Of a DNA stretch of 64,000 nt, positions 7,045 to 52,428 are shown piece by piece. A model generated the notes under the pieces. The model searched no databases. It worked only from the letters and a program-made list of their open reading frames with translations, and was not told the DNA's origin. Origin of the DNA: Clostridiales bacterium (lineage in GTDB: Bacteria; Bacillota; Clostridia; Oscillospirales; Oscillospiraceae); assembly GCA_022775085.1 (NCBI GenBank), contig JALFJQ010000002.1:7681-71680 (forward strand), in the 5' to 3' direction. The position numbers and the translations under genes were made by a program. Position 1 is the first letter of the stretch. Every line of letters starts with the position of its first letter.

Positions 7045-8550
7045 ATGCGAGGAATCCCGTCTCTCATCACAGACATCCGGAAAAACGTCTTTACCGAAGT
7101 TGCCCGCATGGCCTATGCCGGCGGCGATTACACCAACGCGGAGGACCTGCCCTACAAGATCGTCCCCGGCGACCAGCCCCTGCACCGGGAGTCCATTTTC
7201 CTGGAGCGTGCCATCGCCGGTGAGCGGGTGCGCCTTGCCATGGGCCTTGGCATCCGCCCCATCCAGACCCGGAGTCTGATGACCGAGGGCATGGATTCTG
7301 CCGCGGTAGCCGAGCAGTATTACGAGCCGCCTCTGGTCAATATCATCCCCTATGCCTGCCACGCCTGCCCTGAGAACCAGTATAAGGTCACCATTGGCTG
7401 TCAGAACTGTCTGGCCGCTTCCTGCCAGCAGGTCTGCCCCAAGGGGGCCATCTCCTTCGTAAACGGCCGCAGCTTCATTGACAAGGACAAGTGCATCAAG
7501 TGCGGCAAGTGCGCCAAGGCCTGCCCCTACCACGCCATCATCCACTTAGAGCGCCCCTGCCAGGCCTCCTGCGGCATGGATGCCATCGGTTCCGACGAGC
7601 ACGGCAAGGCCGTCATCAATCAGGACAAGTGCGTGGCCTGCGGTCAGTGTCTGGTGTCCTGCCCCTTCGGCGCCATTGTGGACAAGGGCCAGATCTTCCA
7701 GGTCATCCAGTCCATCCTGAAGGGCGACAAGGTCATCGCCATTGTGGCTCCCGCCTTCATCGGCCAGTTCAGCGGCATGGTTTCCCCCGGCAAGCTGGTC
7801 ACCGCCATGAAAATGCTGGGCTTTGACAGCGTTGTGGAAGTGGCCATCGGCGCGGATATGTGCACCATCGAGGAAGCCAAGGATTTCCTGGAAAAAGTAC
7901 CCAATGAGCAGAACTACATGGCCACTTCCTGCTGCCCGGCGTGGCACTCCATGATCGAGAAGCTGTTCCCCGGTGAAATGGACAAAATCTCCATGACCCT
8001 GACCCCCATGGTCTTTACCGCCCGGCTCATGAAGAAGGAGCACCCCGGCTGCAAGGTGGTGTTCGTTGGCCCCTGCGCCGCCAAGAAGCTGGAAGCCATC
8101 CGGGAGACCATCCGCTCCGACGTGGACTTCGTGCTGACCTTCGAGGAACTGATGGGTATGTTCGAGGCCAAGGAGATCGACTTTGCTGCCATCCCCGAGA
8201 GCGAGGGCCTGAACGAGGGCACCGCCGCGGGCCGTGGTTTCGCGGTGGCGGGAGGCGTTGCCCAGGCTGTCGCTGACCTCGTCAAGAAAGAGCACCCCGA
8301 CATGGAGGTAAAAACCGCCCGGGCTGAGGGTCTGCGGGACTGCCGCAAGCTGATGACCATGGCCAAGGCGGGCAAATATAAGGGCTATCTGCTGGAGGGC
8401 ATGGCCTGTCCCGGCGGCTGCGTAGCCGGTGCGGGCACCATTCTGCCCATTGACAAGGCCCAGAAGTTCGTGGAAAAGTACAGCAAGGAAGCCGCTTCTG
8501 CCTCCCCCCTGGAATCCCCCTACCGCCACGTGGGTGAGAACTTGGATTAA
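7045..8550 (+). CDS. [FeFe]-hydrogenase-family protein with N-terminal ferredoxin-type FeS domains
   Basis: H-cluster-type motifs are TSCCPAW, GPCAAKK and EGMACPGGC. There are two CxxCxxCxxxCP motifs (CIKCGKCAKACP, CVACGQCLVSCP) and an extra Cys cluster, CHACP...CQNCLAASCQQVCP. A GGAGGAG RBS is present. Confidence 0.8.
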   Translation: MRGIPSLITDIRKNVFTEVARMAYAGGDYTNAEDLPYKIVPGDQPLHRESIFLERAIAGERVRLAMGLGIRPIQTRSLMTEGMDSAAVAEQYYEPPLVNIIPYACHACPENQYKVTIGCQNCLAASCQQVCPKGAISFVNGRSFIDKDKCIKCGKCAKACPYHAIIHLERPCQASCGMDAIGSDEHGKAVINQDKCVACGQCLVSCPFGAIVDKGQIFQVIQSILKGDKVIAIVAPAFIGQFSGMVSPGKLVTAMKMLGFDSVVEVAIGADMCTIEEAKDFLEKVPNEQNYMATSCCPAWHSMIEKLFPGEMDKISMTLTPMVFTARLMKKEHPGCKVVFVGPCAAKKLEAIRETIRSDVDFVLTFEELMGMFEAKEIDFAAIPESEGLNEGTAAGRGFAVAGGVAQAVADLVKKEHPDMEVKTARAEGLRDCRKLMTMAKAGKYKGYLLEGMACPGGCVAGAGTILPIDKAQKFVEKYSKEAASASPLESPYRHVGENLD

Positions 8551-16008: not shown

Positions 16009-16338
16009 TTAGTCCAGGATCTCCATCAGTCTGCCGCAGCAGAAGGGGATGGGCTCACCGGCCTTGACATGCAGGGTCTTGTTGCAGGTGACGCAGTACA
16101 CATCGGTGTCATAGGGAGCACGGATAACAGGTACTTCCTTGGCCTCCTGCTCGGACAGGCCGTCGATATGGAACACGGCGGTCTTGTTTTCGCTGGGGAC
16201 ATACACGCCGATGGGAGACAGGGTCTTGTTCCCGCCGACGCAGTTGCCCATCTTCACCCACAGGGCTTCCAGTTCAGCAGCTTCCGCAGCGTGCTCGGGA
16301 GTGAACTCCACAACATCCTTATTGATACGAATTTTCAT
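16009..16338 (-). CDS. hypothetical 109-aa protein with C-terminal CxxC...CC motif, co-transcribed with rubredoxin
   Basis: A GAGGAG RBS lies inside the rubredoxin 3-prime end, with a 5-nt gap. Codon usage resembles the neighbours. The sequence contains YCVTCNKTL...PFCCG. I recognise no family. Confidence 0.6.
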   Translation of the reverse strand: MKIRINKDVVEFTPEHAAEAAELEALWVKMGNCVGGNKTLSPIGVYVPSENKTAVFHIDGLSEQEAKEVPVIRAPYDTDVYCVTCNKTLHVKAGEPIPFCCGRLMEILD

Positions 16339-16343
16339 GGCAA

Positions 16344-16478
16344 TTACTCCTCAGGGCTGAATTCGTCCTTGCCCACGCCGCACAGCTCACAGGCGAAATC
16401 CTCGGGCAGATCTTCCCACTTGACGCCGGCCTCGTCCTCATCATAGACCCAGCCGCAGACATTGCAAACGTACTTCAT
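16344..16478 (-). CDS. rubredoxin
   Basis: [44 protein letters not shown] has two CxxCG knuckles. The ORF track extends the frame upstream to 16580. Confidence 0.9.
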
Positions 16479-16524
16479 AGTGATTTGCTCCTTTTCTGGT
16501 AGAATCAGGTAAATTTTCTGCTTC

Positions 16525-16554
16525 GCAGATGGCGGGTCAGTAACCCGCCCCTGC
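16525..16554. repeat. REP-like palindromic element (family A) between rubrerythrin and rubredoxin
   Basis: gcagatggcgggtcagtaacccgcccctgc. Confidence 0.55.
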
Positions 16555-16640
16555 GGACAATGCATCGAATCGGGTGACACCCAACGGTGTTGGACTACAG
16601 AAATGTCGCAGTCACGCCATTGCCTGCGGCGGCTCGCCGC

Positions 16641-17231
16641 TTACTTGAAATAGCGCTCCAGCAGGCCCTTCAGAGCCTTGCCGTGACGGGCCTCGTCACG
16701 AGCCATCTCGTGAACGGTGTCGTGGATGGCGTCCAGGCCGTTCTTCTTGGCGCACTTGGCCAGATCGAACTTGCCGGCGGTGGCGCCGAACTCGCAGTCA
16801 ACACGCCATGCCAGGTTGTCCTTGGTGGTAGCCTTCATGTTGGGCTCCAGATCCTCGCCCAGCAGCTCAGCGAACTTAGCGGCGTGCTCAGCCTCCTCGT
16901 AGGCAGCCTTCTCCCAGTACAGGCCGATCTCGGGGTAGCCCTCGCGGTGAGCAATCCGGGCCATGCACAGGTACATACCGACCTCGCTGCACTCGCCGTT
17001 GAAGTTGGCCATCAGCTGCTCGAAGATGAACTTCTTGTCCTCGTCGGAGATGTCGGGGTTGTTCTTCACGGTCTTGGCGTAGATGCCGTACTCATGCTCA
17101 GCGGCCAGCTTGCCCTCTTCCATGACCTTGAACTTGGAGCCGTCGACCTTGCAGACGGGGCACTTGAAGCCTTCGGGGATGGACTCGCCTTCGTAGACGT
17201 AGCCGCAGACGGGGCAGACAAACTTCTTCAT
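16641..17231 (-). CDS. reverse rubrerythrin (N-terminal rubredoxin-like domain + ferritin-like diiron domain)
   Basis: [15 protein letters not shown]...KCPVC at the N-terminus is followed by EExxH motifs ([18 protein letters not shown]). The start at 17231 has a GGAGGA RBS. Confidence 0.9.
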
Positions 17232-17270
17232 AATAAATTCCTCCAATTTGATAAATTTTTCGGGTTTTAC

Positions 17271-17660
17271 TTACTTATTTGCGCATTTTCCGCACAGGCC
17301 GGTGAAGGTCAGGCGGCAGTTCTGAATACGGCAGCCGGAAACTTCTTCCGCTTCCGCGCTCAGGCTTTCGGGAATCTCCATCTGCGGCAGGTCCACGATC
17401 TCGTCGCAGCCGGTGCAGATGAAGTGCACATGGGGATGGGTCATTGCGTCGAATCGCTCAACGCCGTGGACGGTGGCAACGCTATTCACCAAGCCCTGAC
17501 TTTTGAACCGGGCCAGGTTGCGGTACACCGTCGCCAGAGAGATGTCCGGATGCTCCTTTTGCAGCATTTCGTACACCATTTCCGCCGACGGGTGGGTGGT
17601 GGCCCCTTGCAGGCAGGCGAGGATGGCGTTGCGCTTTCTGAACTGCTTCGCAGCTTCCAT
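17271..17660 (-). CDS. perR: Fur-family peroxide-responsive repressor (PerR-like)
   Basis: HPSAEMVYEMLQKEHPDISLATVYRNL is the DNA-binding helix. HFICTGCDEI and GLCGKC provide the two CxxC pairs. The gene sits upstream of rubrerythrin. The start at 17660 has a GGAGGTG RBS. Confidence 0.8.
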   Translation of the reverse strand: MEAAKQFRKRNAILACLQGATTHPSAEMVYEMLQKEHPDISLATVYRNLARFKSQGLVNSVATVHGVERFDAMTHPHVHFICTGCDEIVDLPQMEIPESLSAEAEEVSGCRIQNCRLTFTGLCGKCANK

Positions 17661-17678
17661 AGACACCTCCTGTCCTAT

Positions 17679-17701
17679 TTGCAAGTGATTCTTACTTACA
17701 A
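17679..17701. promoter_or_regulatory. candidate operator (imperfect inverted repeat) at the perR transcription start region
   Basis: ttgcaagt-gattctt-acttacaa has 7 of 8 complementary arm positions. It lies between the predicted -10 and the RBS. Confidence 0.3.
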
Positions 17702-17705
17702 GCTA

Positions 17706-17734
17706 AGTATATCATTTGGATTTTCTGATGTCAA
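17706..17734 (-). promoter_or_regulatory. candidate sigma-A promoter of the perR operon
   Basis: On the minus strand there is TTGACA (17734..17729), a 17-nt spacer and TATACT (17711..17706). Confidence 0.55.
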
Positions 17735-17785
17735 GAATTAAATGAGAATAATTTGCAAATAAATTTTGAACAGTACGGTATCCCT

Positions 17786-17927
17786 GTCATTGCGAACCAG
17801 CGCGCACGCTGGTGTGGTGACCGAAGGGAATGCCTGCGGTGCAATCCGTTCCCTTCAAGACGTTGCCCATTTGTACACGCAGCCAATGGAGAACGGATTG
17901 CCACGTCGCCGCACTCCTCGCAATGAC
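17786..17927. mobile_element. MITE-like inverted-repeat element, family B (142 bp)
   Basis: The ends are gtcattgcgaaccag... and ...cctcgcaatgac. It is homologous along its length to 19133..19253 (shared ctggtgtgg, caagaYgttg, gagaacggatt). No coding capacity is evident. Confidence 0.6.
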
Positions 17928-17947
17928 ATCAAGCGACAGGAGGCAAG

Positions 17948-18142
17948 TTACACCGCCGCTTCCTTGATGACCGCCACGCCGTCTACGAGGTTCGCCATTT
18001 CCAGGGTTCCCTCCACAGCCATCTGGCGCTCCATCAGGTCGGTTAGGATGACCATGCCGTCCTTGCACTCGATGCGCATGACGTTCTTCATCATCACCAT
18101 TTCAGGGGCCAGTTTATTCTTGTATACGGTAGAAAGGCACAT
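17948..18142 (-). CDS. CooT-family nickel-binding protein
   Basis: 64 aa starting MCLSTVYKNK, with the N-terminal Met-Cys2 typical of CooT. Size and beta-rich pattern fit, and an AAGGAG RBS is present. It lies 13 nt downstream of the His-rich gene. Confidence 0.7.
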   Translation of the reverse strand: MCLSTVYKNKLAPEMVMMKNVMRIECKDGMVILTDLMERQMAVEGTLEMANLVDGVAVIKEAAV

Positions 18143-18155
18143 AGAAATTCTCCTT

Positions 18156-18593
18156 TTATTCGTGCTCCATGCTGGTGAGCACCACGCTCAGACGCATATT
18201 GCCCTTCTCGAAGTCAGACACGGCGGCCATGACCTGCTCATAGGCGGTGTGGTCTCCGGTCTGGTCCAGCTTTGCGGCCAGATCGGCCAACTCCTTGGCG
18301 TGGGCGGCGTTGTGGCCCACCATATACTTCATCAGGGCCATCAGCTCTTCCTTGGGGGTGTGCTCGCACTGGGTCTGGCAGCTTCCGCAGGCGCCTTCGC
18401 AGCCGTGGCTGTGGGTGTGCTCCGCGCCGCTTTCGTGGATGTGGTCGTGGGTATGAGGATGGGCATGTTCATGGGTGTGCTCGTGGACGTGCTCATGGGT
18501 ATGGGTCACACCGTCGTGGGTGTGCTCGTGGGTATGGGCGTGCTCATGGGAATGCTCATGGGGAACGCCGGTATGATCGTGATCAACGTGCAT
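18156..18593 (-). CDS. histidine-rich metal-binding protein (hypothetical)
   Basis: The N-terminal 60 aa are about 40 percent His (HVDHDHTGVPHEHSHEHAHTHEHTHDGVTHTHEHVHEHTHEHAHPHTHDHIH). A Cys cluster CEGACGSCQTQC follows, then a helical C-terminal domain. An AGGAGG RBS is present. Confidence 0.7.
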   Translation of the reverse strand: MHVDHDHTGVPHEHSHEHAHTHEHTHDGVTHTHEHVHEHTHEHAHPHTHDHIHESGAEHTHSHGCEGACGSCQTQCEHTPKEELMALMKYMVGHNAAHAKELADLAAKLDQTGDHTAYEQVMAAVSDFEKGNMRLSVVLTSMEHE

Positions 18594-18622
18594 AGGATAA
18601 GTCCTCCTTTTGGTTTTTCTAT

Positions 18623-18651
18623 ATTATAGTACCAATTCGACCCCATGTCAA
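18623..18651 (-). promoter_or_regulatory. consensus sigma-A promoter of the His-rich/CooT operon
   Basis: On the minus strand there is TTGACA (18651..18646), a 17-nt spacer and TATAAT (18628..18623). Confidence 0.6.
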
Positions 18652-18670
18652 AACATTTATTTCCGTCAAA

Positions 18671-18690
18671 ATATCCCCCTCGGGGGCTTG
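18671..18690. promoter_or_regulatory. candidate CsoR-family operator (C5-N2-G5 inverted repeat)
   Basis: atatCCCCCtcGGGGGcttg sits in the divergent intergenic region. It overlaps the putative -35 (TTGCGG, 18688..18693) of the plus-strand promoter, whose -10 TATAAT is at 18711..18716. Confidence 0.35.
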
Positions 18691-18748
18691 CGGAGAATCG
18701 CCTGCCGTAGTATAATACACTTTACTATGATAAAGAGGAGGGCTGGGT

Positions 18749-19120
18749 ATGTCCGAACTTCACGAACACGAGCACTGCCATGGCCACGATCATGAACAGG
18801 AGCAGGAACACGACCACGCCTACCTCCACGCCCACGGCATCGCCCACTCCCACAGCCATGTCCACGAAAATCAGAAGGCAGTCATTAACCGCCTGTCCCG
18901 GGCCATCGGCCATCTGGAGAAGGTCAAGCGGATGGTGGAGGAGGGGCACGACTGCTCCGAGGTGCTCATCCAGCTGGCTGCCGTCCGCTCCGCCCTGGAC
19001 AACACCGGCAAGGTGATCCTGAAGGATCATATGCGGCACTGCATGGTGGATGCCGTGGCGGCGGGAGATACGGAAGCCATCGACGATCTGTGTCAGGCAA
19101 TTGATAAATTTATGAAATAA
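18749..19120 (+). CDS. CsoR/RcnR-family metal-sensing repressor with His-rich N-terminal extension
   Basis: The core NRLSRAIGHLEKVKRMVEEGHDCSEVLIQLAAVRSALDNTGKVILKDHMRHC carries Cys...His-x3-Cys ligand positions. The N-terminus reads SELHEHEHCHGHDHEQEQEHDHAYLHAHGIAHSHSHVH. A GAGGAGG RBS is present. Confidence 0.85.
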   Translation: MSELHEHEHCHGHDHEQEQEHDHAYLHAHGIAHSHSHVHENQKAVINRLSRAIGHLEKVKRMVEEGHDCSEVLIQLAAVRSALDNTGKVILKDHMRHCMVDAVAAGDTEAIDDLCQAIDKFMK

Positions 19121-19132
19121 GGGTTTTCATGT

Positions 19133-19253
19133 GTCATTGCGAACCAGTCCTCTTTACTGGTGTGGCAATCCGCATCCCCGCAAGATGTTGGTCAACCGAC
19201 ATTGGTGGGGAGAACGGATTCCCACGCCAGTGTGCGCACTGGCTCGGAATGAC
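19133..19253. mobile_element. MITE-like inverted-repeat element, family B (121 bp)
   Basis: The ends are gtcattgcgaaccag... and ...ctcggaatgac. It is homologous to 17786..17927. Confidence 0.6.
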
Positions 19254-19390
19254 ATTTCTTTTTTACCGCGTCCCGCGGTAATAATTCTGAACAGCCCTTG
19301 AATTTTTCTTGAATTATGCCGTTAGGACTGGAACTTTTTCCGCGCTTATGGTATACTGTGCGCAAGTATAAGATGCCAGAGTATGCGAAG

Positions 19391-51992: not shown

Positions 51993-52428
51993 TCAGGAGG
52001 CGTCCCGTACTGTCCAATAGGGACATCTGGCCTTGGCAGAAATACATTTTTTGTTATACTTTCACAAAAAAATGCAGTATGTATTCATTTATCATGCAAC
52101 ATTACACTTTACTAAATGAAATTTGTGTGATAAACTAATGGCGTTATCTTACTATTTTGAAATATAGCAATCACTGGAAATTCATTTTCCCCGGGCAGTC
52201 TCCCGGCAGCTGCCCGGATGGAGCCGTACGCCGCCCGTTTCTGCGGGTTCAGCACCCGGCCGCCCCATTTTTCACCTGTAAAATGGCATCCGCCATCTTA
52301 TGGGCTGCCTGTCTTCCCTGCACCGCCGCCGTCCGGAAGAAACGTCCGGCGGACCCGGAAACCGGCAGGTGCTCTTTCCGGCCCTTCCCGGAACCAAGCA
52401 ACCAGAGAACAAGAAAGGAATGATGTCA

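Follow-up and report, generated by a model that had tools for sequence, protein, structure and literature searches.

The DNA analysed here is a stretch of 64,000 nucleotides (nt), called the window below, which covers positions 7,681 to 71,680 of the forward strand of contig JALFJQ010000002.1 (assembly GCA_022775085.1). It comes from a Clostridiales bacterium of the Oscillospiraceae whose genome (G000, with contigs numbered C) amounts to 2.72 Mb and is 98.8% complete. Three open reading frames are at issue: cooT (17948-18142, minus strand), a gene for a His-rich protein (18156-18593, minus strand) and, divergent from them, the gene of a metal sensor (18749-19120, plus strand). An earlier note on this DNA had proposed that they form a compact nickel-handling module. 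Its description of the frames was accurate as to their positions, the GHDC and DHMRHC motifs of the sensor, the His-rich ends, the Cys cluster, the Met-Cys start of CooT and the 13 nt that separate cooT from the end of the His-rich gene. No hydrophobic stretch long enough to span a membrane was present in any of the three products. Dozens of other genomes have the same pair together with the divergent sensor, so that the arrangement is not due to chance. The reading that we hold to be probable is that the module consists of a CooJ-like/CooT pair of nickel chaperones for carbon monoxide dehydrogenase/acetyl-CoA synthase (CODH/ACS), placed under an InrS-type sensor.

The sensor, CooT and the His-rich protein

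The sensor is a protein of 123 residues whose N-terminal extension (residues 1-40) holds 14 His and whose residues 42-120 match Pfam PF02583 with 98.3 bits (cut-off 22.8). When compared with proteins of solved structure, it was closest to InrS (5FMN) and to an unnamed relative (6AHX), at 85 bits, whereas the Cu(I)-binding CsoRs and FrmR scored about 46 and about 32 bits, respectively. The scores against the NCBIfam models of RicR, FrmR and RcnR were far under their cut-offs. An alignment of the W-X-Y-Z ligand positions, which the earlier note had recommended, placed His37 (or His39), Cys69 of the GHDC motif, and His94 and Cys98 of the DHMRHC motif on His21, Cys53, His78 and Cys82 of InrS, the Ni(II) ligands of that protein (PMC7055735; PMC4235346). 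The residue preceding the first Cys is Asp68; at this position, Tyr marks the Cu(I)-CsoRs and Pro is found in InrS (PMC4235346). Furthermore, the orthologues encoded beside the same gene pair keep the motifs HxH[VT]HEN (before helix 1), DCSEVL and DHxxHC, as well as an extra His beside the second Cys. The claim of an InrS-like sensor was thus borne out by family membership, by the best match and by the aligned ligands. The sensor is a CsoR-family protein closest to InrS with a His-Cys-His-Cys ligand set, and we infer that nickel is its effector.

Like InrS of Synechocystis PCC 6803, the sensor belongs to the CsoR/RcnR fold family, carries the His-Cys-His-Cys set, lacks a Tyr before the first Cys and has a His-rich N-terminal extension. 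It differs from InrS in that this extension is far longer and richer in His, and in the conserved additional His adjoining the second Cys. In addition, no nickel-exporter gene of the nrsD type, or of any other, lies next to it, the putative targets being the chaperone genes, cooS and importer genes. Nickel-pincer (lar) genes were not found next to the sensor in the relatives' loci examined.

The ligand set was also weighed with copper and zinc in mind. The sensor could be a variant of a Cu(I)-CsoR, and the His- and Cys-rich protein a buffer for copper or zinc: Cu(I)-CsoR has exactly the same C-H-C core as the sensor, InrS shows tight in vitro binding of Cu(I) and Zn(II) (PMC4235346), and stretches rich in His and Cys readily bind both metals. 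However, the genome encodes a second CsoR paralogue on a contig separate from that of the module (C58:8193-8432). This paralogue contains a Tyr-Cys pair, its N-terminus is rich in Cys (CGCCGK), and its gene directly precedes that of a P1B ATPase of the CopA type with a GMSCAAC motif (L084 1444-3238). Judged by its genes, this pair is a classical csoR-copA copper operon, and since copper sensing is thereby already provided, a module sensor that responds to Cu(I) only is disfavoured. The missing Tyr and the gap in score between InrS and the CsoRs point the same way; moreover, no copper or zinc gene is adjacent to the module or bears the DNA site described below, every contextual link being to nickel proteins. 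A copper or zinc system was therefore considered very improbable.

The protein of 64 residues encoded by cooT is a true CooT. The profile searches proposed earlier, which placed the sensor in PF02583, also assigned this protein to PF10133 with 63.2 bits (cut-off 27), over profile positions 1-60 of 60. Its second residue, Cys2, is invariant across 27 syntenic partners, all of which begin with Met-Cys-Leu, as does the CooT of the window, and a profile built from these partners matched the Rhodospirillum rubrum CooT structure 5N76 with an E-value of 6.5e-5. The AlphaFold2 model (mean predicted local distance difference test, pLDDT, 91) is all-beta. When this model was submitted to Foldseek, ranks 1 to 7 were taken by 6FAN, 5N76 and 6Y8V, with template modelling (TM) scores of 0.78-0.85 and a probability of 1.00, and a sharp drop followed. 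The absence of a CooT fold had been named beforehand as a finding that would speak against the module; the fold was found.

In CooT, nickel is bound through Cys2 with a Kd of 9 nM (PMC6006190). The protein of the window resembles the CooTs of R. rubrum (5N76) and Carboxydothermus hydrogenoformans (6FAN) in length, Met-Cys start, all-beta fold, Pfam membership and the presence of CODH in the genome. It is only about 24% identical to the R. rubrum protein, and, in contrast to the known cases, its gene lies away from cooS and cooC and is accompanied by a gene of the PF26551 family instead of cooJ.

This accompanying gene encodes the His-rich protein, of 145 residues. Three parts were distinguished: a His-rich region (residues 1-63; 18405-18593, minus strand), a Cys cluster of the form C-x3-C-x2-C-x3-C (residues 65-76; 18366-18401, minus strand; CEGACGSCQTQC) and a conserved domain predicted to be a helical hairpin (residues 78-145; 18159-18362, minus strand) with Y90, H94, N95, H98 and E101. 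There are 24 His among residues 1-60 and 31 in total, and the Cys residues are at positions 65, 69, 72 and 76. Scans with the Pfam and NCBIfam models gave no significant match for this protein, and the earlier note had assigned it to no family. This did not hold: the protein belongs to a large, conserved and uncharacterised family, with 5,403 homologues in a large protein collection, and all 120 close homologues among the matches listed carry the precomputed Pfam tag PF26551. An exhaustive profile search recovered 1,112 clusters at 50% identity, 464 of them with E < 1e-10. PF26551 was not mentioned in the literature searched.

Throughout the family, the domain is always C-terminal, and the head that precedes it varies in length. 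Most members have a His-rich head: among 147 representatives, 86 have at least 5 His in it, and about one third have at least 3 Cys. In the alignment of the domain, a His, Asn, His, Glu, Gly, Asn and Leu are invariant, and the motif [YF][ML]xxHNxxHxxE ... G-N-x-x-L is present in about 147 of 150 representatives. An AlphaFold2 model of the domain consists of two helices (pLDDT 97). In the databases, this gene is often entered with a product of only 64-65 residues, since gene callers often choose an internal Met as the start and thereby lose the His-rich head entirely.

In public records, members of the family are named "cobalt transporter". As the product is a soluble protein of 145 residues without a membrane segment, this name is wrong and appears, by the sequence, to be a systematic mislabel, an annotation error that is corrected here.

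Gene pairing and association with CODH/ACS

The conservation of the arrangement was followed in two sets of loci, one of 33 from the same taxonomic family and class and one of the 80 closest named loci, picked with a single-sequence query. All of the latter come from gut Oscillospiraceae, mostly metagenome-assembled genomes of Faecousia from humans, ruminants, chickens and rabbits; the cultured Pseudoflavonifractor sp. MSJ-30 is also included, so that at least one carrier is in culture. Of the 33 loci of the first set, about 27 have cooT immediately after the His-rich gene and about 17 a divergent sensor gene. In the second set, 75 loci extend far enough to be judged, and 70 of these show cooT in that position; about half of the 80 contain the divergent sensor. 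The co-occurrence of the His-rich protein with CooT, which had been put forward as a check, was thus confirmed.

When the context was widened to views of 19 kb in 20 genomes, the pair was found repeatedly at the head of a conserved block. Named with NCBIfam models, the genes of this block are those of the Wood-Ljungdahl CODH/ACS cluster. In one locus from another genus (L064), the order is His-rich gene, cooT, a MinD-type (CooC-like) ATPase, acsD, acsC, acsE, acsB, acsV and a DUF3786 gene; in a second (L045), it is His-rich gene, cooT, metF, cooC, cooS, cooC, acsB and acsD.

In addition, a census of 301 genomes of the taxonomic family was carried out. Both the His-rich domain and a full AcsB were present in 65 genomes, the domain only in 13 (all weak matches), AcsB only in 15 and neither in 208. 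AcsB thus accompanies the domain in 65 of 78 genomes, a count taken from relatives that are not independent, so that a p-value carries no weight; the trend itself is nonetheless clear.

Seven genomes (G405, G494, G537, G591, G618, G660 and G683) combine weak matches to the His-rich domain with a protein of about 250 residues whose similarity to AcsB is confined to positions 306-460 of the latter; where a full ACS is missing, these two may form a separate pairing.

In the source genome, the acs genes were located by tblastn. A main cluster with metF, cooC, acsD, acsC, acsE, acsB and acsV is found at C67:70645-81394, and the same contig carries cooS-cooC and a second acsB. The CooS protein was identified with TIGR01702 (613 bits, cut-off 478) and adjoins a CooC-like ATPase. 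Two further cooC-like genes are on C51, which brings the CooC-like ATPases of the genome to four, and LarA, LarC and two CbiM-type transporters are encoded on other contigs. Neither a [NiFe] hydrogenase nor a urease was found in the genome. The premise that no nickel enzyme is at hand is consequently true of the window and false for the genome, where a complete CODH/ACS set is present on C67. The earlier view of a free-standing buffer with no nickel enzyme nearby was not supported, given CooS, four CooC-like ATPases, two AcsB, LarA and LarC elsewhere in the genome and relatives in which the pair starts the CODH/ACS operon. In the source genus and its closest relatives, the chaperone pair is separated from the acs cluster.

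The second acsB lies apart from the main acs cluster: at C67:41558-46508, cooS-cooC is followed by this full-length paralogue, whose product shows 58% identity to the query, the AcsB of L064. Two AcsB genes are common in relatives. In many of these genomes, the last gene of the acs cluster encodes a DUF3786 protein (L064 130-879; in the source genome, C67:80738-81394).

Promoters, a candidate operator and a putative regulon

The two minus-strand genes are preceded by a promoter at 18623-18651 (minus strand) composed of TTGACA (18651-18646), a spacer of 17 nt and TATAAT (18628-18623). It matches the consensus at 12 of 12 positions, and the TTGACA/TATAAT arrangement is kept in related loci. The promoter of the sensor gene (18688-18716, plus strand), with TTGCGG (18688-18693), 17 nt and TATAAT (18711-18716), was read directly from the sequence, its weaker -35 not being picked up by a consensus promoter scan.

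Between the two, a candidate operator was delineated at 18671-18693 (ATATCCCCCTCGGGGGCTTGCGG). Its core palindrome (18673-18686) has the form ATATCCCCC-N2-GGGGG; it sits on the sensor's own -35, which the right end of the operator overlaps, and 23 nt upstream of the -35 of the operon. Of the 38 loci with a sensor gene, 24 show the pattern [AT]ATATCCCCC-N2-4-G3-5-CTTGCG-N17-TATAAT; of the 40 without one, a single locus does, and this match is probably spurious. Since the pattern travels with the sensor gene, the palindrome belongs to the promoter of the sensor. A site at this place is as expected for an autoregulated repressor of this family. The known operators of RcnR and CsoR are G/C tracts flanked by AT-rich repeats.

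A search of the source genome with ATCCCCC-N0-3-GGGGG returned four matches, three of which are intergenic and all nickel-related: that of the module, one on C24 (around 52206) that abuts the -35 of a fused cbiM-cbiN gene, and one on C67 (around 46667), 36 nt upstream of the -35 of cooS. A similar site was found upstream of cooS in two relatives' genomes (G504 and G518) and before genes of Nik/Opp-type importers (SBP_bac_5 in G504; oligo_HPY ATPases in a third relative, G456). Genomes in which no sensor adjoins the pair encode a 74-90% identical one elsewhere, and G456 keeps the site on the relocated promoter. The palindrome would thus be a newly described candidate operator, shared by the sensor promoter, cooS and the fused cbiMN gene. 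As the same palindrome precedes both cooS and cbiMN, one nickel sensor appears to tie together uptake, chaperones and client enzyme.

Several other candidates were set aside. The fourth match, on C54, lies inside an open frame; CCCCC..GGGGG hairpins with GC-rich flanks belong to an unrelated abundant repeat, and most matches of the pattern in relatives fall in coding-like GC-rich sequence. A strict C5-N-G5 palindrome had been dropped, as it looked unconserved in a small set, before the relaxed pattern over 80 loci showed the site tied to the sensor.

The site in front of a CbiM-family gene would also be in keeping with cobalt. The module could be a cobalt-handling unit for the corrinoid iron-sulfur protein AcsC/AcsD of the same pathway: the pair directly precedes cooC-acsD-acsC in relatives, the database name of the family would fit, and an InrS-type site also binds Co(II) in vitro (PMC4235346). 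However, the transporter gene on C24 that bears the site is a divergent M-N fusion (NikMN-like), under every cobalt-CbiM cut-off, whereas the canonical CbiM-CbiN-CbiQ set on C80 has no palindrome. It is while cobalamin is being synthesised that corrinoids receive their cobalt, and not at the AcsCD stage. Furthermore, the database name is a mislabel for a protein without a membrane segment, CooT is a nickel protein by its affinity, and the other site precedes cooS, the gene of a nickel enzyme. A cobalt unit was considered quite improbable, and the module was taken to be one for nickel, in agreement with the class of the sensor, the identity of CooT and the links to nickel proteins.

A second proposal retains nickel and gives up the client enzyme. 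The module would be a free-standing unit for storage and detoxification of nickel (or cobalt), in which rising nickel releases the sensor and the cell makes a His-rich sponge and CooT, with no specific link to CODH/ACS. All the characterised metal-sensing proteins of the CsoR/RcnR family are released from DNA by their own metal (PMC7055735), and an operon promoter of perfect consensus would need restraint. In addition, the head resembles the low-affinity multi-nickel sites of the Hpn or CooJ type (PMC6006190), and, within this clade, none of the 80 closest loci has a nickel enzyme gene attached to the module. On the other hand, the family tracks ACS across genomes and sits within the CODH/ACS operon in other genera, and the site shared with cooS suggests a connection to the enzyme. 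A pure sponge, moreover, would need neither a structured domain with invariant His, Asn, His and Glu nor an obligatory CooT partner. We regard this proposal as rather unlikely, but it overlaps the chaperone reading, since buffering and delivery are not exclusive, and nickel buffering by the His-rich head is a plausible part of the function.

The proposed nickel chaperone pair and the flanks of the module

To place the His-rich protein, it was compared with CooJ and Hpn. In published CooJ proteins, one end of the chain, either the N- or the C-terminal one, is rich in His, and a helical domain of about 60 residues contains the nickel site H(W/F)xxHxxxH; they are hard to recognise by sequence (10.64898/2026.03.10.710785; PMC6006190). 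Variants with the His-rich region at the N-terminus occur in Shewanella fodinae and Clostridium pasteurianum BC1. The protein of the window resembles CooJ of R. rubrum (6HK5) as a small cytoplasmic protein with a disordered His-rich region joined to a domain of about 60-65 residues that is predicted to be helical and would offer His and Glu ligands. It is likewise encoded beside cooT and, in relatives, also beside cooC, cooS and acs genes. It differs in the additional Cys cluster found in many members of the family, in the gene order (His-rich gene then cooT, instead of cooT then cooJ) and in that the family is mostly tied to ACS-type clusters of gut Oscillospiraceae and not to CO-oxidising coo operons. 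A canonical CooJ was not found beside any CooT gene in a class-level sample of 29 loci. By analogy in size, architecture and neighbourhood, the His-rich protein would work like CooJ, yet it is not shown to be a CooJ.

Hpn and the Hpn-like protein of Helicobacter pylori share with it a very high His content and a presumed role in buffering several nickel ions. The Hpn proteins are almost wholly low-complexity, whereas members of the PF26551 family contain a folded domain that is strictly conserved, besides having CooT as an obligatory partner and the link to CODH/ACS.

Under the chaperone-pair reading, the two genes would be transcribed as one operon from the perfect sigma-70 promoter. The disordered head of the His-rich protein, with its 24-31 His and four Cys, could hold several Ni(II) ions loosely, and the two-helix domain, as modelled, probably pairs into a helical bundle that offers a specific His-x3-His-x2-Glu site, while CooT would bind Ni through Cys2. 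Together, the two proteins may gather nickel where it is scarce and hand it on to the CooC ATPases, from which it would reach the CODH C-cluster and the ACS A-cluster. The sensor would bind the C-tract/G-tract palindrome, a candidate site known from sequence, on its own -35, and the same sensor may act before cooS and the fused cbiMN gene, which would couple uptake, chaperones and client enzyme. As to the direction of regulation at each promoter, release of the sensor by nickel would be the family's rule; InrS itself represses an exporter and enhances an importer (PMC7055735).

Several observations weigh against this reading. With regard to CooJ, the H(W/F)xxHxxxH site is absent from all 150 domains, [YF][ML]xxHNxxHxxE being in its place, and neither the single sequence nor a profile of the helical domain matched any chain of the Protein Data Bank, 6HK5 included, at E-values up to 10. 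Foldseek with the hairpin model returned generic helical hairpins only (best E 0.77), with 6HK5 outside the top 50, a two-helix hairpin being too simple to discriminate. With regard to the pairing, a partner from the His-rich family was lacking at 22 of the 29 class-level CooT loci and present nearby at 7; the partnership is one-sided, most class-level CooT genes being without such a partner. Nor is the module adjacent to its presumed client enzymes in the source genome. With regard to the operator, the palindrome is absent from the promoters of metF-cooC-acs, larC, larA and the C51 cooC genes, 14 of the 38 sensor-bearing loci lack the pattern, and two relatives of the same genus carry a degenerate form. 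In the promoters of the operon and of cooS, the site precedes the -35 and does not cover it, so that repression there is not self-evident. Finally, an importer induced by nickel would be unusual.

A more far-reaching form of the proposal can be put forward tentatively. The PF26551 protein might be the missing dedicated nickel metallochaperone for the ACS A-cluster (and CODH) of gut acetogens, acting alongside CooT and the CooC ATPases by way of a His-x3-His-x2-Glu site that is not related to the one in CooJ, and the InrS-like sensor might govern a feed-forward nickel regulon in which uptake, chaperones and CODH are turned on together when nickel is available. This possibility, doubtful as it is, concerns a step that is poorly understood, namely the route of nickel to the CODH C-cluster and especially to the ACS A-cluster; CooT and CooJ have been said to have "unclear functions" (PMC6006190). 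In any case, a widespread and unstudied partner of CooT, which tracks ACS in abundant gut Oscillospiraceae (Faecousia and relatives), is described here, and it brings with it a candidate metal site, a candidate nickel sensor, a candidate operator and a small putative regulon.

The module is bracketed by two copies of a palindromic repeat resembling a miniature inverted-repeat transposable element (MITE) with the termini TGTCATTGCGA...TCGCAATGACA, of which dozens of copies, 37 of them long, are present in the genome. The first (17785-17935; predicted fold -68 kcal/mol) separates the module from a PerR operon. The second (19132-19262; predicted fold -75 kcal/mol) lies downstream of the sensor gene and is followed by a T-run. 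Another copy was noted just upstream of the operator-like site of cbiMN (C24, around 52300-52420).

To the left of the module, an oxidative-stress operon with its own promoter occupies 16009-17761 of the minus strand. It encodes a PerR-type regulator of the Fur family (17271-17684), a rubrerythrin with an N-terminal rubredoxin-like domain (16641-17246), a rubredoxin (16344-16580) and, at its end, a protein of 109 residues (16009-16338; CxxC and CC motifs, VTCNKTL...PFCCGRL) without a match among the Pfam and NCBIfam models. The promoter of this operon (17734-17706, minus strand; TTGACA-17-TATACT) is located inside a 23-nt inverted repeat (17676-17698 / 17739-17761), which could be a PerR box.

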